This document shows positions 6,885-15,325 of a stretch of DNA of 15,325 bases, piece by piece. The position numbers and the translations under genes are program-made. The DNA is from Candidatus Hodarchaeota archaeon (lineage in GTDB: Archaea > Asgardarchaeota > Heimdallarchaeia > Hodarchaeales > Hodarchaeaceae), in the NCBI GenBank assembly GCA_030589605.1, contig JAUUVJ010000032.1, positions 1 through 15,325 on the forward strand, read 5' to 3'. The notes below the pieces were generated by a model. That model was not told where the DNA came from. It was given only the letters and a program-made list of their open reading frames with translations, and searched no databases. The stretch's first letter is position 1, and each line of letters opens with the position of its first letter.

Positions 6885-7017
6885 CATTTAGTCTTTCTTC
6901 CAAAAGGGTAAATAAGATATTATATCTTTAGTGAGATGAATGATCTGTTAAGGAATTAACATTAGTCATCATGCTATCGTTTGAAATAGCTTTTTATAAG
7001 TGATTAAAGGTTTTAGT

Positions 7018-7830
7018 ATGATATGGTCAGATTGGAAGAATTCATACAACAAAATAGTTGAGGAATTGGAACTTAATGCAGAAGCTGATGAAAAAACATC
7101 AGTATTGCTCGATGATTTTTTTTGTAGTATATCATCTAAGAAGAAAAATACTATTCATCAGAAATTATCCCACATTTTTCAACATCCTGTAATTATTGCA
7201 GGGGCAGGACCATCTTTAATGCAGGATTTAGCAGCAATATTAAAATCTAAAAAGATCCATAATTTACCTCTAATCTCTGTTAATGGTGCAACGACCTTGT
7301 TCAAACAGAAAGAAATTGTACCGCTAGTAGTAGTCTCAGATCTTGATGGAGATTTAACAGCGATTAAGTGGGCGATCGAAAACGGAGCTTTAACATTACT
7401 ACATGGTCATGGAGATAACGGTAACATTATATTTAATTTTCTAGACCAACATCATGATATTGTTTCAAATTATGATGTATGGGGGACCACTCAATGTAAA
7501 CCTAAACATTCCCTTTTCAATTTTGGTGGATTTACTGACGGCGATAGAGCGATTTTCATTGCATTCCACTTCCAAACCCCCTTGATTGGTTTAATTGGGT
7601 TTGATTTTGGTGTAAAAATTGGCCAATATAGTGTACTAAACTCCTCTATCAAAAAAAATGGAAAATTCAAATTGAAGAAATTTAAGATTGCCCTTGCACT
7701 ACTCGAAAAGTTTCATTCCCGTCATAGAGGAACTCGTTATAATTTGACAACTCAAGGGGAAGTAGTACCAGGGTTTCCCAAAAGAGATATTCCTACTTTC
7801 CTTAGTGAACTGGCTGAATACTACAAGTAG
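7018..7830 (+). CDS. mptE: 6-hydroxymethyl-7,8-dihydropterin pyrophosphokinase, archaeal MptE type (DUF115/COG1634)
   Basis: Family motifs are VIIAGAGPSL, ISVNGATTLF, VVVSDLDGDL and LLHGHGDNG. The track begins at GTG 7000. I prefer ATG 7018 because AAGGT (7007-7011) sits 6 nt upstream of it. Confidence 0.75.
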   Translation: MIWSDWKNSYNKIVEELELNAEADEKTSVLLDDFFCSISSKKKNTIHQKLSHIFQHPVIIAGAGPSLMQDLAAILKSKKIHNLPLISVNGATTLFKQKEIVPLVVVSDLDGDLTAIKWAIENGALTLLHGHGDNGNIIFNFLDQHHDIVSNYDVWGTTQCKPKHSLFNFGGFTDGDRAIFIAFHFQTPLIGLIGFDFGVKIGQYSVLNSSIKKNGKFKLKKFKIALALLEKFHSRHRGTRYNLTTQGEVVPGFPKRDIPTFLSELAEYYK

Positions 7831-8317
7831 CCCGATAACAAGAAGTTTCCCAAATTGTGATATTGATCCTCTCTATTCTTTGCCAAAATTCTTTTTTTTT
7901 CAGTTGATTTTGAACTTTTTCTCCTAAAAGTCTCGTTAAGGCCTCTGTTGTGACATTAGTACAGTCTAATACCTTTACCTCTTCATTAGGAATAGAATAG
8001 AAACGGATACCATATTCAATATCCAGATTATTCTCACGAATATTTATTTCCATATTGGGATTATTTGAAGGCAAAAGAACGTAGTGATCCCATTCAGAAA
8101 GGAGATTATTCAACATTTTATCTAAGTATAGAAAATCAATTATTATGTCATCTGAATCAGGCTTTCCTTCAATTTCAATTCCCACCTGATAATTATGTCC
8201 ATGCAATCCTTCTTCAATGTCATCTGAGATAAGAGCATGAGACGCACTGAAATGAGCAGCAATTTTATCAATAGCAATAGAGATTGAATTATGGCTATTC
8301 TTCTCCACGAAGTTCAA
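7802..8317 (-). CDS. COG0720 family enzyme (6-pyruvoyl-tetrahydropterin synthase / QueD-like), 171 aa
   Basis: The zinc His triad is present in FSASH...GLHGHNYQVGIEIEG. Further family motifs are IIDFLYLDKML, EWDHYVLLP and TTEALTRLL. The start is TTG at 8317 and overlaps the trxB stop as TTGA. GTG at 8308 is an alternative start. Confidence 0.8.
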   Translation of the reverse strand: MNFVEKNSHNSISIAIDKIAAHFSASHALISDDIEEGLHGHNYQVGIEIEGKPDSDDIIIDFLYLDKMLNNLLSEWDHYVLLPSNNPNMEINIRENNLDIEYGIRFYSIPNEEVKVLDCTNVTTEALTRLLGEKVQNQLKKKEFWQRIERINITIWETSCYRATCSIQPVH

Positions 8318-9276
8318 CCATCGCTAGCTTCTTCACCATACCAATCCCCACCTCTCATATCTAGAAATGCAGATATCGCTGCTGTTGTTCCTTCACCAAC
8401 AGCAATCGCAATTTGACCTTGCCCAGGAGTAATATCACCACACGCATAAACCCGAGGAAGATTGGTACGCTGATGATCATCAACTTTAATGAGACCATCT
8501 TCAGTTAATTCGACTCCAATTTTTTTTGCTAGTTCATTATTGGGGTCTATACCGATTGCGATAAAGATTGCTTTTACCCTAATTGAACTTTCTTCTCCTG
8601 TCTTTATATTCTCTATGGTAACTTTCTTCACTCCACCTGCTTCAGATCCGTGGATCTCCTTTACAACAGAATCCCAAAGAATATTTACCTTTGAATTTTC
8701 AAGAATTGCTTTTTTAAGGGAATTTTCTGCCCGTAACTGATCACGACGATGAACTAGATAGGTCTCACGAACGAGATTATCAAGGTAAAGCGCTTCTGTT
8801 ACAGCGGAATTACCTCCACCCACAACAAGTACTTTTTTTGATTTATATAATGGACCATCACAAGTAGCACAATATGAAACTCCTCTACCTTCATTTTCAT
8901 CTTCTCCTGGAACACCTAGGTGACGATGATTCGTACCAGTTGCAAGAATAACTATTTTTGATGTATAACTACCTGAGGAAGTATTTACTTCGATTGGTAC
9001 TTGATCTGTTTTAATATCTGCTACTTCTACTAATTCTTTGATTTCAGCACCAAATTTTTCAGCTTGTTTCCGTAATTTTTCAGAAAATTCAAGGCCAGAT
9101 ATTTCAGAAAAACCTGGATAGTTTTCAATAACTGGAGTTGTCGCTGCTAAACCACCTACTGCTCCCTTGTCGAGTACTAAAGTTTTCCAACCCATTCTAG
9201 ATCCATAAATCGCAGCAGCCATACCTGCTGGCCCAGCACCAACTATTATTATGTCATAATCAGAGGTAATTCCCAT
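8314..9276 (-). CDS. trxB: NADPH-dependent thioredoxin reductase (low-Mr TrxB type)
   Basis: Motifs seen are the FAD site IIIVGAGPAGMAAAIY, the redox-active CATCDG, the NADPH site VVGGGNSAVTEALYL plus HRRDQLRA, and the C-terminal FAD motif ACGDIT. The track starts at GTG 9288. ATG 9276 (MGITSDYDIIIVG) is equally or more plausible. Confidence 0.9.
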   Translation of the reverse strand: MGITSDYDIIIVGAGPAGMAAAIYGSRMGWKTLVLDKGAVGGLAATTPVIENYPGFSEISGLEFSEKLRKQAEKFGAEIKELVEVADIKTDQVPIEVNTSSGSYTSKIVILATGTNHRHLGVPGEDENEGRGVSYCATCDGPLYKSKKVLVVGGGNSAVTEALYLDNLVRETYLVHRRDQLRAENSLKKAILENSKVNILWDSVVKEIHGSEAGGVKKVTIENIKTGEESSIRVKAIFIAIGIDPNNELAKKIGVELTEDGLIKVDDHQRTNLPRVYACGDITPGQGQIAIAVGEGTTAAISAFLDMRGGDWYGEEASDG

Positions 9277-9725
9277 GTTAGCCAACACTCCGTCTATAAA
9301 TGATTAGATCATTATTGTTTATACTGGTTAAATCAAATGTTATTAAACTTTTGTGATTCGAGATACTATGCTTATAATTTGTAACAGAAGTGTTGAAAGC
9401 AAATTTGATAAATAACATATGAATAAACAAATTTGATTCAATCTTGATCCATCTTAATAGCAAAAAATAGATTTTAAAAAAATCATTAAGTATTCTCAAA
9501 TAATATTATTCTAGGTCAAAAACAAAATAAAATGAATTAGTACTAGTAAACTTACAATTGAAAGTCATTTTCTAGGTATTTACTTTCTATTTAGAGAAAT
9601 ATTTAAAGTCGCTACTAGATTGGGTAAATAGAACTTTCACTAATTTCTGGATCTCACTATTATTTGTATGTAAAAGGGTTATCGTAGTAAAAAAGCTCAT
9701 TCAGATTAAGAATGGTTGTTATATA

Positions 9726-12386
9726 ATGGAAGTAATACGATCTTCAACATCAGAAATCATTTTTCTTGTAGATTCATCAAACGCATTGATTAACGAACAA
9801 GATTTCATATTAATATCTGATTCTACTAAATCACCACTAAAAGAATATCTGGGACAAATATCAAATATTATACAGCAAAAAACTGGTGAAATCAAGGGTA
9901 ATGCTTTGGTTCTCGGAGAAATTAACCTTGATAACCACACTTTATCAAAATGTAGATTTCCGATTGCTTTGAAATCCCAGATCAGCAAGCCTCCAAAAGG
10001 ATTAGTTTCGAAAATTATTTCATATCGAGAGGAGAATGGAATTTATCTTGGTGATATAATTACTTCTGATGAGCAGAAAGAACCTTTTTTGATATCTCCC
10101 AATTTTTTAGAGCGACATGTACTTTGTGTAGCAAGTACTGGTGCAGGTAAATCTTATACAGTTGGAGTGATACTAGAAGAAGTTTTAATGAAATATTCTT
10201 CCGCTGCAGTACTTTTATTTGATATTCATAATGAATATTGGGGGTTATCTCAACCAAACGATGGAAATGAGATAGAGTCAATTACCTATGAAGATTATTC
10301 CCCGAGGGGATTCTTAGAGAATATTCTTCTTTTTGAAGAAGGATCACTAGGATTAGGAAAACATTTTGATCTAAATAAGTTACGTAGATTGTCTGACTTA
10401 ACCGCAGCCCAAGAAAATTCTCTTCTGAACATAATCGAAGAGCCTCTTTCACTAGAGGAATTAATTTCGAGAATTGAAAATTCAAATATACATAGTTCAA
10501 CACGAGACAATCTAATTTCAAAAATACATTCACTTAGGAATCTAGATTTATTTGATAAAGATCTGGATTTTCATTCTTTGATAAAACCAGGTCAAATCTC
10601 GATTATTCGTTTAGATCAATTTACAGATGAACGAAGACGGAAGATCTTAGTCAATGAAGTATTAACTCAGCTATTTGAAAAGAAGTTACATGGAGAAATC
10701 CCACGAGAACATGAGATAGTGTTGATTATTGAAGAAGCTCATAGATTTGCCACTTCAGCTGAAATTTTACCACGAATTGCACGAGAAGGACGAAAATTTG
10801 GTGTTTATGAGATACTTATCTCTCAGCGACCTGGTGACTTACCAGATAATATTATAGCCAATATGAATACACTAATAGCTTTAAGAATAAAATCTGATAA
10901 AGATATCAATAAAATTCGGTTAATGGAAGGAATTAGTACCGATACTGTTTCAGTATTGCCTCATCTCATTAGGGGAGAAGCTTTACTTGTAGGATTACAA
11001 GGAACGACTCACCGTCCAATAAAGATCCATGTACGGCCCCGCTTATCAAAACATATAGATCCCCAAGAAGATGAAATGCCTGAAGATATCCCTCGATATG
11101 GTCATATTTCAGATCAGATTAGTGAAACAACTGATGTATCAAAAATTGAAACATTAAAAACTGAAGATATCGATCAAGAAACCGATATTACTCTTTCTAC
11201 CGAGATTGAACCCTTCAGTTTTAAAGATCTTACAAACTTACTTTCATGTCAACATGTTCTAATCCTTCAAAAACATTCAGGTATATGTTTGTTTGGTATT
11301 GGAGCTACTATGTTTAAAATCGATCCACAATTGATATCTGGTTTTTTATCCGCAATTTCTGGGCTTTTTAGTGAACTAAAAAGTCAAACTGCTATAAAAG
11401 AGCGTACAATTATAAGAACATTTAGAGAAGAAATTGGAGACCGTGCTTTTGAGATTATTACAGTAGAAGGGACTTACTCGGCTACTGCCATCATTCACGA
11501 TCGCACTCCAAAATATTTTTCACATCTAAAGAAAAGAGTGAGAACTTTTGTGTACGCTTTTGAAACGAAATTCTTAAGTCATCTTAAAGGATTTTCTGGT
11601 GTACTTGACGATTTTGACTCTGCTAAACAACTGTTAGATGAATACCTTGGTATAGCTTTAACAACTCCTCTTCAAATCAACTTAAACTATCGAAAAGAGA
11701 ATATCACTTCTTATTCAGATTTATATGAAATTATTGAAAAACAATTGGATCAACTAGCTACTGGTGAGGGAATCTTTGTTGAAGAAATGGTAAATCAATG
11801 CATTCTAGACTCTAATTATAATCATCGTGAAATAACAGAAGGAATTATCTCATTTCTGAAAGATAAAATACTCATACTCGTTGATCAAAATCGAAAATTA
11901 CCGCCTTTTTCATCCCAGTTATTGTATGATGTAGAAGAGAAAATACCAGAACCAGAAAAAATAGAAGAAACTGAACTAGATTCTATACAGTCATTTTCAG
12001 ATGAAATCGAACAGAAAAATCATTCTAACGCTATTTCAGTAGAATTAACAGAAAGTAATATGAAATGGTTTTCAGATGTAATACCTGAAATCTCTGAATC
12101 CCCCCTTCCTGACTCTTTAAAGCAAGATATATTGGAGCGAGACATAATGTTTGAGTCAAATTGTAGAATTAAAACAAGTTCGGTCAGAGCGGAAATATTT
12201 TCCATGTCTGATTTAACACGTTGGGCTGAACTTATGACTCAGAGAGGATTTATTACACAATCAAAAACAAAAAACCCGCTTAATGGAATAAAAATCGCAT
12301 TGAAAGCTGAATTTACTACTATTATGTGCTCAATTGCGTTATTGAAGAATGGAGATTTTCTTACAATACTAGCAGAAACAATATGA
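9726..12386 (+). CDS. HerA/FtsK-superfamily (DUF87-type) P-loop ATPase with a 440-aa C-terminal extension: acidic linker, longin/roadblock-like module, possible winged helix and an unknown C-terminal domain
   Basis: The N-terminal region of about 100 aa is compatible with a HAS barrel. Walker A is LCVASTGAGKSYT (nt 10131-10154, checked). Walker B is EIVLIIEEAHRF. Other core motifs are GRKFGVYEILISQRPGDL and TLIALRI. The core ends near aa 440 (IKIHVRPRLSKH). Residues 441-495 are D/E/T-rich. The extension has no TM helices. Confidence 0.85.
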   Translation: MEVIRSSTSEIIFLVDSSNALINEQDFILISDSTKSPLKEYLGQISNIIQQKTGEIKGNALVLGEINLDNHTLSKCRFPIALKSQISKPPKGLVSKIISYREENGIYLGDIITSDEQKEPFLISPNFLERHVLCVASTGAGKSYTVGVILEEVLMKYSSAAVLLFDIHNEYWGLSQPNDGNEIESITYEDYSPRGFLENILLFEEGSLGLGKHFDLNKLRRLSDLTAAQENSLLNIIEEPLSLEELISRIENSNIHSSTRDNLISKIHSLRNLDLFDKDLDFHSLIKPGQISIIRLDQFTDERRRKILVNEVLTQLFEKKLHGEIPREHEIVLIIEEAHRFATSAEILPRIAREGRKFGVYEILISQRPGDLPDNIIANMNTLIALRIKSDKDINKIRLMEGISTDTVSVLPHLIRGEALLVGLQGTTHRPIKIHVRPRLSKHIDPQEDEMPEDIPRYGHISDQISETTDVSKIETLKTEDIDQETDITLSTEIEPFSFKDLTNLLSCQHVLILQKHSGICLFGIGATMFKIDPQLISGFLSAISGLFSELKSQTAIKERTIIRTFREEIGDRAFEIITVEGTYSATAIIHDRTPKYFSHLKKRVRTFVYAFETKFLSHLKGFSGVLDDFDSAKQLLDEYLGIALTTPLQINLNYRKENITSYSDLYEIIEKQLDQLATGEGIFVEEMVNQCILDSNYNHREITEGIISFLKDKILILVDQNRKLPPFSSQLLYDVEEKIPEPEKIEETELDSIQSFSDEIEQKNHSNAISVELTESNMKWFSDVIPEISESPLPDSLKQDILERDIMFESNCRIKTSSVRAEIFSMSDLTRWAELMTQRGFITQSKTKNPLNGIKIALKAEFTTIMCSIALLKNGDFLTILAETI
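11214..11645 (+). other. Longin/roadblock-like module inside the HerA-type protein (aa 497-640)
   Basis: The predicted pattern is beta-beta-alpha-beta-beta-beta-alpha: HVLILQK, ICLFGIG, DPQLISGFLSAISGLFSELK, IIRTFREEIG, AFEIITVEG, YSATAIIH, KKRVRTFVYAFETKFLSHL. The assignment comes from sequence pattern only, with no structure prediction. Confidence 0.45.
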
Positions 12387-12424
12387 AAGGAACGGTATTT
12401 TATAACATTTAATGCAAGTTTCAC

Positions 12425-14995
12425 TCATTCAGTTGTAAATAATTCTTTCACGATTGGAATATCGTCATAAAAAACTTCGAGATCACCCAACCACATAGGT
12501 AGGGTCTTTCCATGTCTTATTTCGAAATCTGTTAAGAAGGATGTAAGTTTTTTACGTAATTCAGTAGATGTAGTATCTGCAAATATTGCTGCGAAAACAT
12601 ATTTTGCATATTCTATCGTCAGAACGACATCTCCATGATCAATTGTTTTTAATAATTGCTCACTTCTGACTGCTTCTTTTGCAAATGAGGTAATAGCAGA
12701 GAAAAGTCCCGCAACTAAAGCTGGTTCGACTTGTGATTCTGCAGCAAATGTGTGTGATAATAAAGCTCTTCCATCTAACATCATCACATGTAAAGAGTCG
12801 ATTGTAACTTCTTTGAATGAATAAGAAAATTCCTTATGAAACAATGTAAATACTTGATTAAAAGGAACTTCGAGATCAAATGTTAATTCATCTAATATTT
12901 CCTGAATTCGAGTAGTTTTTAGCCCAGTTACAAGATTTAATTCCTCTAACGATCTTTCTTTACTAACAATTGCTTGATACAGCTGTGAACCATTTTCGAT
13001 GTTAGCTGCCTTTTCATCTATTTGTTGTTTTAATGAAACTTCTTCAATTTGAGAGGCACTAATTAAAATGATTTTAGATTTTCTCTCCAGTTCACTTTTA
13101 GAGGGTAAATGAGACATATCAGAATAAATTGTTTTGTATTGTGTTTTTTCTTCCCCAACCTGAGTTTTTGCTTTAAATTTGCGTCTAGCTAAAAACAGGA
13201 CAGCTCCATATGTCATTAAAATCGCAAAGGGGTGTAATATATTGTATGGAATTGATAAAATACCCAAAAACTGACCTCCAGTTCCTTTCCAAATAACTGG
13301 AATTTCAATTAGCTGTGGAACAATAAATTGGATCTGGTTGAAAGTACCTTCTTTCCATACTGATGATAACCAATTTGTTGTAACTGTTGTTCCTGTGATA
13401 CCAGCAAAAAGGTTTGCTACTACTGTAATAAATGGAGCGATTAAAATTTCTCCATCGTATTGGGGAAAAGGAGAATCGAAATTTAATAATGTGTACCATT
13501 GATCGTTGTAATAATTGAAAATCAAAAAACTCACTAAGAACATGGTTATATATATCACTACAGTTGAACCTATAAGACTCCAATTCCATCTTCGGATGAA
13601 TAAGATTAATAATGCACAAAGAATAAAACTAGCGAAGTTTTGAGTTAACCAGAAGAAAGATCTGTAATGAACAGTTTCTAAATAAATAAACATACCTTTC
13701 ATAAACACCCTGTATGTAAGAAAACCAAAAGCCAGTAAAATACCAAAAACTATACCTGCTAAAACAGATTTAGCGTAATTCTTTAAATCAAACTGTTCAA
13801 ACACTACTCTCAGATTCTTAAATGATTCAATTAGTTTTATTAGCAAAAATATCGAGAAAGGTTCAAAAATGTCTAAGAACAACACGAAGAATATTGATAC
13901 CATTATAAAATACACAACAAAGTATGAAATTACGAAGATTTGATCAGAATATTGAACTAAGAACAGAATAACAGCTAATCCTGACATAAAGGCTCCTACA
14001 GTTGATAAACTCTGAACCATGGTAATATATAATTGATTTCCTAAGAATTTTCCCTTTCGAGATAAATGACTAGCTTTAATGAGATACACACAGAATACAA
14101 TAGAGGCAATGTATGCAAAGAAAATTTCTAAGAACCAACCCATTGTTGTTCCTTGTAGTAAACTTGGGTTTTCAGTTTCTCCAAGTAACTGAAGAATGGT
14201 CATAAGAAGAAATAGTGTAATCGGCAGAATAGCAATAAGGACTTTCAAAAGTTCTTTTTCACTATCCCAATTCTTTTTCTTTACACTCGTCATAATTTCC
14301 TGAAAAGGGGAAACTTCCATTTCAAACTGTATCTCTTGGAGTCGTTGAGTGATACCCCGTACTTCATTCAATTGCTGTTTAAAATCATCTGTATCGGTTT
14401 CTATTTCTTTAATATTCAATGCAATTTCTTGGGCTTTCTCTTCGGATGCTTCTTTTAATTGTTTTTTGAGTACTTTAATCTCACTTTGGTTACGCTTGAT
14501 AAATCGTTTGAGAGGTTTTTTGTTATTTCTTTTTTCACCCCAGGTCTGGTAAAGTATTATTATCATTGATAAGAAAGGGGATATCCCAAAAACAAATCCT
14601 AAAACAATTATAGGATAATTTAGATAATTAACTAGGGAATTAATTAGATGTTGAACTAAATATCTGATAATAATGGGTATTCCAGGGATTGTTGCATTAG
14701 CAGGACTTACCGTTGTATCCCATACAGTGCTGAAGCCATTAGTACCTGGAATGGGATAATACTCCTGAGTCATGTATTGATTTGGATTCGGTACAAAAGA
14801 GTTTATTATACTTGGAAAAACGAAGTATCCAATATAAAAAACGATAAAACCTATATAAAATCGATTAAAGATGACTGCAATGAGATTTTCGTCTTTTTTA
14901 CGGGTATATAGATAAGGAAAGAATATGATGATCAAAGGTAATAAAGTTACAATAAGGGAGAATATTATATTTATTGGATCGTCAAATAGTGCCAT
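12425..14995 (-). CDS. Large polytopic membrane protein (about 12 TM helices) with a cytoplasmic K/E-rich coiled-coil loop and a cytoplasmic C-terminal tail carrying a possible winged helix and a longin/roadblock-like module; no recognisable family
   Basis: The ATG is at 14995. Hydrophobic helices run through aa 8-610. Positive-inside residues follow TM1 (TRKKDEN), TM3 (KRNNKKPLKRFIKR) and the last TM (ARRKFKAK). The loop at aa 62-120 has an N-A-T sequon and is predicted to be outside. Residues 153-248 are a charged, heptad-like segment. Residues 610-856 are soluble. Confidence 0.8.
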   Translation of the reverse strand: MALFDDPINIIFSLIVTLLPLIIIFFPYLYTRKKDENLIAVIFNRFYIGFIVFYIGYFVFPSIINSFVPNPNQYMTQEYYPIPGTNGFSTVWDTTVSPANATIPGIPIIIRYLVQHLINSLVNYLNYPIIVLGFVFGISPFLSMIIILYQTWGEKRNNKKPLKRFIKRNQSEIKVLKKQLKEASEEKAQEIALNIKEIETDTDDFKQQLNEVRGITQRLQEIQFEMEVSPFQEIMTSVKKKNWDSEKELLKVLIAILPITLFLLMTILQLLGETENPSLLQGTTMGWFLEIFFAYIASIVFCVYLIKASHLSRKGKFLGNQLYITMVQSLSTVGAFMSGLAVILFLVQYSDQIFVISYFVVYFIMVSIFFVLFLDIFEPFSIFLLIKLIESFKNLRVVFEQFDLKNYAKSVLAGIVFGILLAFGFLTYRVFMKGMFIYLETVHYRSFFWLTQNFASFILCALLILFIRRWNWSLIGSTVVIYITMFLVSFLIFNYYNDQWYTLLNFDSPFPQYDGEILIAPFITVVANLFAGITGTTVTTNWLSSVWKEGTFNQIQFIVPQLIEIPVIWKGTGGQFLGILSIPYNILHPFAILMTYGAVLFLARRKFKAKTQVGEEKTQYKTIYSDMSHLPSKSELERKSKIILISASQIEEVSLKQQIDEKAANIENGSQLYQAIVSKERSLEELNLVTGLKTTRIQEILDELTFDLEVPFNQVFTLFHKEFSYSFKEVTIDSLHVMMLDGRALLSHTFAAESQVEPALVAGLFSAITSFAKEAVRSEQLLKTIDHGDVVLTIEYAKYVFAAIFADTTSTELRKKLTSFLTDFEIRHGKTLPMWLGDLEVFYDDIPIVKELFTTE
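12428..12826 (-). other. Longin/roadblock-like module at the C-terminus of the membrane protein (aa 724-856)
   Basis: SYSFKEV, LHVMMLD, ALLSHTF, EPALVAGLFSAITSFAKEAV, LLKTIDHG, VVLTIEYA, YVFAAIFA, ELRKKLTSFLTDFEIRHG. The order of elements and the key motif are the same as in the HerA-type protein. Confidence 0.45.
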
Positions 14996-15276
14996 TACTA
15001 TCCATCCTGCTTAATTAAATCTTATACACAATTATTCATTATTGGAGATAAATTATATTTTTTCCTTTTTATACGTATCATTAAAAACTTTGTTTTCACC
15101 AGATTATTGGTTCCTTCTATTATAAATTTCAGAGGAAAAAGAGGACAATTTACTGTGAAAAAGTCTACTAAAACTTATGTAAAACTACTTTAACCAAGTA
15201 ATTGTGAAATACTAAGAAAATTGACATTTGTAACGATACTAACTTCTCCCCATCTTATAAAAAAAGAAAAAAGAAG

Positions 15277-15302
15277 AGAAAGACGATTACCTTCGTCTTT
15301 TT
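15277..15302 (-). terminator. 10-bp hairpin (AGAAAGACGA ttacct TCGTCTTTTT) flanked by A-rich and T-rich runs; probable terminator of a minus-strand gene lying beyond the right edge
   Basis: The stem 15277-15286/15293-15302 has 9 Watson-Crick pairs plus 1 G-U. In the minus sense it is followed by TTCTCTTCTTTTTTCTTTTTTTATA. The gene it would terminate is outside the window, so this cannot be confirmed. Confidence 0.35.
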
Positions 15303-15325
15303 CGGTAGAGAGCATAGAGAGGAGG

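Follow-up and report, generated by a model that had tools for sequence, protein, structure and literature searches.

Convergent genes for a HerA-clade ATPase and a polytopic membrane protein that carry homologous, predicted roadblock/longin-type modules in Hodarchaeales

The window analyzed here is a 15,325-nt stretch of DNA from a Candidatus Hodarchaeota archaeon of the order Hodarchaeales (assembly GCA_030589605.1, contig JAUUVJ010000032.1, positions 1 to 15,325). It contains two convergent open reading frames (ORFs) that encode an ATPase of the HerA clade (886 residues) and a polytopic membrane protein (856 residues), respectively (Table 1). A preliminary description of this DNA, made from the sequence alone, had noted that only 38 nt separate the two stop codons and that the membrane protein has about 12 transmembrane (TM) helices; both points are borne out by the ORFs, the hydropathy profile and an AlphaFold2 (AF2) model. 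The spacer is ~40–130 nt in most orthologous loci. Each protein carries in its C-terminal part a copy of the same kind of module, which structure prediction places in the roadblock/longin superfamily. The gene pair and its domain architecture are real and apparently undescribed. Indeed, a full-text literature search found no description of the pair or of fusions of the module to a HerA ATPase or to a polytopic membrane protein, in agreement with the preliminary description, whose author had not recognized the architecture.

Table 1. Features of the convergent gene pair and of the surrounding window (aa, amino acid residues; pLDDT, predicted local distance difference test; HMM, hidden Markov model)
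Feature	Position (nt)	Strand	Basis or remark
HerA-clade ATPase gene, whole, 886 aa	9726..12386	+	ORF, translation, Pfam DUF87, HerA HMM and PDB sequence matches
ATPase N-terminal domain, aa 1-105	9726..10040	+	aligns with N-terminal part of archaeal HerA models
ATPase P-loop core, aa 106-445	10041..11060	+	block identity 0.9 over motif stretches
Walker A motif	10128-10154	+	within P-loop core
Walker B motif	10716-10742	+	within P-loop core
QRP motif	10818-10841	+	within P-loop core
Acidic linker, poorly conserved, aa 446-496	11061..11213	+	block identity 0.13 (aa 461-480), 0.34 (aa 481-500)
Predicted roadblock-type module of ATPase, aa 497-640	11214..11645	+	BLASTP/HMM homology, AF2, Foldseek
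Helical, winged-helix-like domain, aa 641-729	11646..11912	+	AF2, pLDDT 84-92
Disordered acidic linker, aa 730-775	11913..12050	+	pLDDT <50; block identity 0.14-0.17
C-terminal α/β domain, aa 776-886	12051..12383	+	AF2, pLDDT 84-94
Spacer between both convergent stop codons, 38 nt	12387..12424	.	ORF coordinates
Polytopic membrane protein gene, whole, 856 aa	12425..14995	-	ORF, translation, AF2 model
Predicted longin/roadblock-type module of membrane protein, aa 725-856	12428..12823	-	homology, AF2, Foldseek
Pre-module cytoplasmic tail, aa 604-724: β-hairpin and helical domain	12824..13186	-	AF2
Membrane domain, aa 1-603, ~12-13 TM helices	13187..14995	-	hydropathy, AF2
Charged cytoplasmic helical hairpin, aa ~150-245, between TM3 and TM4	14261..14548	-	AF2 helices 108-182 and 185-210
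Surface protein gene, 3' end, last 12 codons and stop, cut by window end	15287..15325	-	PPLYALYRKRRR followed by stop; matches tail of the 607-aa protein of locus L004
tRNA-Val (anticodon CAC)	3139-3215	+	ARAGORN and Rfam; between NfeD-like and MutS-like genes
MutS-like ATPase gene, 734 aa	3274-5478	-	
MBL/DRMBL-type hydrolase gene, 303 aa	5558-6469	-	directly adjoins MutS-like gene, same strand

The ATPase is a HerA-clade protein that, judged from its sequence, falls outside every named family tested. It matches Pfam DUF87/HerA with an E-value of 1.2e-18 (68.5 bits, cut-off 23.2), and also the HerA models of NCBIfam and PADLOC and, by sequence, solved HerA structures. The HerA/FtsK-type core of the preliminary description, with its three motifs, is present in the translation: Walker A (VASTGAGKS, residues 135–143), Walker B (IVLIIEEAH, residues 331–339) and the QRP motif (ISQRPGDL, residues 365–372). 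Across 56 family members, identity at these motifs and at other core positions is 97% or more, and since the catalytic motifs are conserved, the ATPase is probably active. About 58 full-length orthologs of about 855–894 residues were found, with identities of 48–100%; they come from metagenome-assembled genomes (MAGs), and all of those with a named source are Asgard archaea, mostly labelled Heimdallarchaeota, Hodarchaeota or Hodarchaeales. Below them lie two proteins at 32% identity, followed by a steep drop in score to generic HerA proteins of ~500 residues. A profile search with the ATPase extension (7 proteins only) and a metagenome scan (6 close orthologs only) did not widen the family. 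Hydropathy scans of family representatives predict 0–1 hydrophobic segments.

The N-terminal domain of the ATPase is, we infer, probably a HerA-type β-barrel. The alignment with Sulfolobus HerA starts at about residue 100, and residues 1–112 gave no match to Pfam HAS-barrel at E-values up to 10. This domain is missing in the divergent variants P0202, P0219 and P0225, in which Walker A lies at residues 28–57. A highly divergent P-loop core without the N-terminal domain is seen in P0202 (L046 7727–10339), P0225/P0332 (L055 12409–15315), P0207, P0214, P0219 and P0231, and in the same variants the module and the helical and C-terminal domains are well kept. Such cores could reflect very fast core evolution or core replacement.

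In the C-terminal half, residues 490–886 were modelled with AF2 at a mean pLDDT of 78; in this model, the helical domain spans residues ~630–720 and the disordered linker residues 730–777. Because of its low conservation, the linker between the core and the module (residues 446–496) is suggested to be flexible; if so, the roadblock-type domain would be tethered on both sides. The helical domain that follows the module (residues 641–729) has no Pfam or PDB assignment. The C-terminal α/β domain shows no homology to the module and is retained in all ATPase variants, including those with divergent cores. When the whole extension was compared with the PDB by Foldseek, weak matches to Fuzzy, Inturned and one BLOC-3 chain were obtained (E 2e-4, TM-score about 0.2), all of which are multi-longin subunits of guanine nucleotide exchange factors.

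The membrane protein consists of about 12–13 TM helices, according to a hydropathy scan and AF2, a cytoplasmic hairpin and a cytoplasmic tail of 250 residues. Its full-length AF2 model has a pLDDT of 81 and a predicted template modelling score of 0.80. Among its 66 homologs, all of those with a named source come from Asgard MAGs. The hairpin loop is rich in charged residues (22 K/R and 19 D/E) and draws only coiled-coil noise matches. The TM domain gave no sequence match in Pfam, NCBIfam or the PDB. All 50 listed Foldseek matches of the membrane protein in the PDB are longin/roadblock proteins covering about 80–160 columns, so the TM domain has no solved counterpart among them. Conservation within the protein peaks in the C-terminal module (block identity 0.76–0.94), which is still recognized in homologs of only 25–49% overall identity, with E-values of 1e-46 to 1e-70. 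Pfam PF28006.1 appears in the precomputed annotation of three orthologs (P0127, P0133 and P0146); a Pfam rescan of P0127 and P0133 at E-values up to 10 did not return this accession.

The two modules are homologous over a stretch of ~125 residues. BLASTP aligns residues 497–637 of the ATPase with residues 725–853 of the membrane protein (26% identity, E 1e-4), and reciprocal family HMMs match every member of the other family, with E-values of 1e-14 to 2e-4 one way and 1e-12 to 1e-6 the other way. An hhalign comparison of both modules yields a probability of 97.9% and an E-value of 5e-13 over 119 columns, and reveals no second related region between the two proteins. Homology of their helical domains was considered and rejected, as these are unrelated in hhalign.

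The fold of the modules was identified by structure comparison only, not by sequence annotation. Both AF2 models show a five-stranded sheet between a central helix and terminal helices, for which the orders α-β-β-α-β-β-β-α and β-β-α-β-β-β-α-α were accepted as roadblock/longin; the ATPase module follows the former order (residues ~499–621). Foldseek matches the ATPase module with a probability of 1.0 to MglB, LAMTOR2/MP1, the C-terminal domains of Rag, dynein LC7 and Roadblock2 of Prometheoarchaeum, and the module of the membrane protein, also with a probability of 1.0, to AP sigma/mu, Sec22b (target TM-score 0.74), Mon1-Ccz1, TRAPP and LAMTOR; the E-values are modest for both (1e-3 to 1e-1), and both structures are predicted. 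Sequence searches gave no match to a curated roadblock/longin family in Pfam (E up to 10) or NCBIfam and no meaningful PDB profile match. The strand and helix order of the modelled ATPase module is the same as in crystal structures of Asgard roadblock proteins (PMC10933270). Collectively, the models place both homologous modules in the roadblock/longin superfamily. The module type named in the preliminary description, and the structural relatedness of the two C-terminal regions on which it relied, thus hold, the former by AF2 and Foldseek, the latter by hhalign and by the common superfamily in Foldseek. MglB, Ragulator (LAMTOR2/3)-Rag, Mon1-Ccz1, TRAPP and AP sigma/mu share this predicted fold with both modules; however, the modules are not members of these platforms at the sequence level and are fused here to a HerA ATPase and to a polytopic protein.

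The module belongs to a large family. A profile of both copies retrieved 2,837 clusters at E-values up to 1e-3, and 601 at E-values up to 1e-10, from 1.84 billion representative proteins, with clusters counted at 50% identity. The family escapes every Pfam model of the library used. The module occurs in standalone proteins of 118–157 residues, in PCI/winged-helix proteins, in other polytopic membrane proteins, in HerA-like ATPases with or without the N-terminal domain, and in proteins of 1,100–2,600 residues for which one or two hydrophobic segments are predicted; FG-GAP/Ig-like or CARDB domains are present in two of these large proteins. Named carriers are labelled Hodarchaeota/Hodarchaeales, Loki/Promethearchaeota or Helarchaeota. 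This diversity agrees with the picture of an abundant, lineage-specific and shuffled roadblock/longin superfamily in Asgard archaea, for which Liu et al. report 130 roadblock/LC7-superfamily asCOGs as well as many non-eukaryotic architectures, and the main text of that preprint mentions neither HerA nor FtsK (bioRxiv 10.1101/2020.10.19.343400).

The ATPase and the membrane protein are encoded side by side throughout a clade of close relatives. When species-representative genomes were scanned with the membrane protein as the query, 36 loci were obtained. The ATPase gene lies downstream of the membrane gene in 19 of the 19 close orthologs (60–78% identity) with enough flank, and the 16 distant loci of the same scan have no downstream ATPase. 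Loci retrieved with ATPase orthologs from three additional genomes (L002/L003, L004 and L005) show the same convergent arrangement, with the membrane gene next to the ATPase gene, and the two genes also adjoin in L047–L050. In divergent lineages, where the ATPase is ~24–31% and the membrane protein ~33–49% identical, the genes are neighbors in three cases and lie on the same contig in a fourth. L046 keeps the pair, with a 49% identical membrane protein and an ATPase that has a highly divergent core and no N-terminal domain. In L055 (ATPase 24%, membrane protein 34% identical), the genes are convergent with a 131-nt spacer, and their surroundings are partly reshuffled: TrxR, the gene for a 544-residue protein and a helix-turn-helix (HTH) gene are gone, and a 601-residue surface protein and PTPS-MptE remain. 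P0219 and P0196 have consecutive protein accessions, and P0207 and P0198 lie on one contig. The preliminary description had expected the genes to be neighbors in related genomes, and this holds for the loci just listed, including three divergent pairs; yet this adjacency is not independent evidence of a link, and outside these loci the partner is often missing, as described below.

One apparent exception, a genome (L001) seemingly keeping only a 111-residue module gene beside the ATPase, was discarded as an artefact and not a loss, because the breakpoint is a run of N, i.e., an assembly gap. In L001 (CP070760.1, a genome recorded as complete), this run lies at about 11075–11180 inside the membrane protein gene, and the artefactual 111-residue call that results consists of the C-terminal module alone. 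Downstream, the genes of L001 are not those of the usual block, which is suggestive of a misassembly or a scaffold join.

A plausible reading of this arrangement is that the ATPase and the membrane protein act in one membrane-proximal pathway in Hodarchaeales, in which the adaptor domains would bring the ATPase ring to the membrane protein. Such coupling, direct or through a shared partner, has somewhat less than an even chance in our estimate. The direct form would be a heterodimer of roadblock and longin modules like that of LAMTOR2/3, Mon1-Ccz1 or the C-terminal domains of Rag, and we regard it as rather doubtful when taken by itself. In the indirect form, which appears quite improbable, the shared third partner would be another roadblock/longin protein or a small GTPase. 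In either form, the linker that precedes the module would allow the ring to come close to the tail of the membrane protein. Roadblock/longin domains homo- or heterodimerize and dock nucleotide-dependent machines on membranes, and Asgard roadblock proteins crystallize as homodimers (PMC10933270, where Ragulator, TRAPP and MglB are also reviewed). The proposed joint would thus resemble Ragulator-Rag or Mon1-Ccz1.

The rival that survives best holds that the two genes are independent: each module is a generic Asgard adaptor, acting as a homodimer or with its own small GTPase or roadblock partner, the adjacency is inherited synteny, the membrane protein works with the surface proteins encoded upstream on the same strand, and the ATPase acts elsewhere. 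We consider this rival and the coupling of the two proteins about equally likely. Several observations speak for independence and against coupling, starting with gene order. The genes are convergent and are therefore transcribed separately, without co-transcription. The whole block of ~18 kb is syntenic in the same genomes, in the order HTH membrane protein, 544-residue protein, 607-residue surface protein, membrane protein and ATPase (convergent), TrxR, PTPS, MptE, MBL (metallo-β-lactamase) and MutS-like gene, and it includes unrelated housekeeping genes (TrxR, PTPS, MptE, MBL and MutS-like). Within the clade, the adjacency of the ATPase is therefore no better evidence of a functional link than that of TrxR, and it could have been retained by simple descent.

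Moreover, the membrane protein family extends more widely than that of the ATPase, and outside Hodarchaeales its members usually have no adjacent ATPase. No ATPase was found within the flanks, some of them short, of about 19 loci (L007–L009 and L030–L045) whose membrane homologs are 25–36% identical. None is nearby in Heimdall LC_3 (L007), in L030 and L031, or in a clade of ~740-residue membrane proteins, the genes of which adjoin HDAC and an ABC transporter. L009 shares the membrane-ParA-PTPS-MptE-AIRS frame with L055 and has four unrelated genes at the position of the ATPase. Conversely, the ATPase clade of P0062, P0063 and P0192 has no membrane neighbor; in L054, the gene directly upstream of the divergent ATPase is TrxR-like, in L006 such a gene is found ~3 kb upstream, and both loci encode an Arf-like small GTPase still further upstream. 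The members of this clade (L054 1616–6696; L006 3135–10748; L053 1–2125) are about 30–35% identical to the window ATPase and have the same module and C-terminal domain. In two genomes, a gene for a 467-residue protein stands between the pair (L011 4343–5746 and L026 10290–11693, both on the + strand), so the pair tolerates separation by about 1.6 kb. The inserted gene has a CxxxCxxC-type motif and, judged by eye, looks like a B12-binding radical-SAM enzyme.

The module itself also argues for independence. Its family is promiscuous, with the clusters counted above spread over many architectures, and the two copies are not sisters. The HMM of the ATPase module reaches a median of 67 bits in other architectures versus 28 bits in the membrane family, and that of the membrane module 60 bits in other architectures versus 32 bits in the ATPases. 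After removal of likely fragments, the nearest relative of every copy outside its own family is a module of another architecture, and both copies rank among the more distant members of the module family. The statement of the preliminary description that both proteins carry the same module is therefore right at the level of the domain family; the module is not private to them, and each copy is closer to other architectures. As far as sequence comparison goes, the ATPase and the membrane protein share a kind of domain and not a private domain pair. The module is equally conserved where no ATPase adjoins, which is indicative of self-association or of a more universal partner. Finally, a mirror-tree analysis (distance-matrix correlation) of 23 paired loci detected no specific co-evolution; the module-to-module correlation (r 0.81; 0.58 after controlling for TrxR) was no higher than that of other cross-protein pairs, so the test is uninformative.

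Three observations, however, sit poorly with independence. First, the module is rare per genome, so two adjacent carriers are unlikely by chance: with 5–20 copies per genome, a rough estimate, adjacency would be expected in a few percent of genomes, again by our own rough estimate. One further module-bearing gene was found in ~770 kb of flanking DNA. Second, the pair persists in lineages that have lost half of the surrounding adjacencies. Third, local duplication was rejected as the source of the shared module, since each copy has closer relatives than the other copy. As a separate observation, L041 is a second case of module-bearing genes close together: a 526-residue protein (884–2461, +) with the same module at its C-terminus is encoded 5.5 kb from a distant homolog of the membrane protein. 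It resembles P0273 (526 residues, ~12 predicted TM helices), which does not match the HMM of the family's TM domain.

Several known systems can be compared with the ATPase and with the gene pair. Archaeal HerA (HerA-NurA; NF040819/NF040937; PDB 4d2i) has the same P-loop core with the Walker A, Walker B and QRP motifs. In contrast, the window ATPase scores below the cut-offs of both NCBIfam models, helicase_HerA (111.7 bits versus 970) and HerA_Thermprot (80.6 bits versus 800), its C-terminal extension of ~440 residues is too long for a generic HerA of ~500 residues, and some members of its family have no N-terminal domain. NurA, Mre11 and Rad50 were found neither in the window nor among the called genes of L001–L006, L046 and L055. 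FtsK/SpoIIIE belongs to the same ATPase superfamily and resembles the proposed arrangement in that a hexameric DNA pump is anchored to the membrane by a long, flexible linker. However, the membrane domain and motor of FtsK form one polypeptide, whereas two proteins with adaptor domains as the proposed joint would be involved here; the membrane domains are unrelated, and the window ATPase reaches 20.0 bits with Pfam FtsK_SpoIIIE, under the 24-bit cut-off. The crenarchaeal Ced system (polytopic CedA and a HerA/VirB4-like ATPase) likewise pairs a polytopic protein with a HerA-like ATPase in an archaeon. Of its models, only NCBIfam CedD matched the window ATPase (67.6 bits versus 600), and the membrane protein had no Ced match at E-values up to 0.1. 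We know of no roadblock/longin domains in Ced proteins. SIR2-HerA and DUF4297-HerA also combine a HerA-clade ATPase with one partner, and the PADLOC HerA models match the core of the window ATPase; the NCBIfam anti-phage HerA equivalogs give 71.1 bits versus 850 and 59.2 bits versus 800. These two systems follow a defence-island pattern, whereas the window pair is vertical, syntenic and order-wide and has no SIR2 or DUF4297. Their partner binds the N-terminal face of the ring; here, the candidate contact would be the C-terminal adaptor. Overall, the scores are 8–14-fold below every equivalog cut-off, and the ATPase is no canonical NurA-type, defence-type or Ced-type HerA protein.

Judged by its family, the ATPase would assemble into a hexameric ring and act as a translocase. 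The precedent of the family points to double-stranded DNA as its substrate, which is speculative; with that substrate, the pair would be a split analogue of FtsK/SpoIIIE or CedA/CedB. The most specific form of the coupling is a split FtsK- or Ced-like envelope machine of Hodarchaeales, with a HerA ring tethered by a roadblock-longin heterodimer to a polytopic membrane protein of a new fold, and possibly including the Heimdall-CTERM surface protein described below. We judge this form unlikely.

A third explanation, which we regard as very improbable, is that the ATPase is a soluble repair or DNA-processing HerA that works with a nuclease other than NurA (the MutS-like and DRMBL-type MBL proteins, or β-CASP), the roadblock module being regulatory or dimerizing and the membrane protein irrelevant. 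Its best HMM and PDB matches are indeed repair-type and defence-type HerA proteins, and genes for a MutS-like protein (734 residues), an MBL/DRMBL protein (303 residues) and β-CASP lie 3–9 kb upstream of the ATPase; the first two recur in close ortholog loci where the flank permits, and β-CASP recurs in the loci of ATPase orthologs. Nevertheless, TrxR, PTPS and MptE intervene on mixed strands, these genes are not near the ATPase in L055, L054 and L006, no locus examined has an adjacent nuclease, and every HerA equivalog score is far under its cut-off. HerA-based anti-phage defence with the membrane protein as the effector is hardly plausible and was rejected on distribution and context: several defence systems do pair HerA with an effector, and the PADLOC HerA and mad8 models match the core (at best 128 bits), but across the order the pair shows vertical inheritance and a constant location within a housekeeping block, the base composition of the window is even, no SIR2, DUF4297 or other effector is present, the PADLOC match of the membrane protein is at noise level (E 1e-3, 67 residues of the charged hairpin), and the anti-phage HerA scores given above (59–71 bits) stay far from their cut-offs (800–850).

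The gene that precedes the membrane gene on its strand encodes a secreted surface protein of ~580–607 residues; the window contains only the 3' end of this gene. The 607-residue protein of L004 and the L055 homolog pass the NCBIfam Heimdall-CTERM cut-off. This surface protein is the most widely conserved same-strand neighbor of the membrane protein, and their adjacency reaches further than that of the ATPase, namely to Heimdall LC_3 (L007, with no ATPase nearby), L046 and L055, a further point in favour of independence. In the main clade, the surface protein is preceded by a membrane-anchored protein of ~540 residues and a membrane protein of ~490 residues with ArsR-type HTH domains. The surface protein may, speculatively, be part of the same apparatus, and it should be taken into account in any model of the membrane protein. 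The coordinates of the surface-protein regions are 13684–18641 in L004, 7340–9145 in L055 and 5914–7653 in L007. An archaeosortase-like role of the membrane protein, prompted by this neighbor, was considered and rejected: no exosortase or archaeosortase HMM matched, and the invariant or near-invariant columns of the TM domain contain no Cys or His.

Hodarchaeales have been reported as close archaeal relatives of eukaryotes, and the many genes for roadblock/longin proteins and small GTPases in their genomes are interpreted as forerunners of membrane trafficking. To our knowledge, almost none of these genes has a known client. The locus supplies two order-wide conserved clients of one predicted roadblock/longin domain family, namely a probably active HerA-type motor and a polytopic membrane protein. 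If the modules pair, this would be an archaeal case of roadblock/longin adaptors that recruit an energy-consuming machine to a membrane protein, and the pair would constitute a new membrane-associated HerA system. If the envelope-machine form is true, an adaptor of the eukaryotic trafficking type would couple a prokaryotic nucleic-acid or protein pump to the membrane in archaea close to eukaryotes. Even without pairing of the modules, the locus documents a large, promiscuous and unannotated Asgard domain family of about 2,800 clusters.

The remaining genes of the window are archaeal housekeeping genes, comprising JAB, β-CASP, NfeD, tRNA-Val, the MutS-like ATPase, the MBL/DRMBL hydrolase, MptE, PTPS and the TrxR-like reductase. 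The G+C content is even along the window (0.31–0.38), and nothing suggests a mobile or defence island. NurA, Mre11/Rad50, SIR2 and DUF4297 gave no match among the ten largest ORFs (Pfam for all ten, NCBIfam and PADLOC for four of them), consistent with the absence of such genes noted in the preliminary description. The MutS-like ATPase has an N-terminal helix-hairpin-helix and MutS domain V, and its top NCBIfam match is KamC at 68 bits, far under the cut-off. Together with the MBL/DRMBL-type hydrolase gene, it forms a candidate repair or nuclease pair that recurs in close Hodarchaeales loci wherever the flank extends to it.

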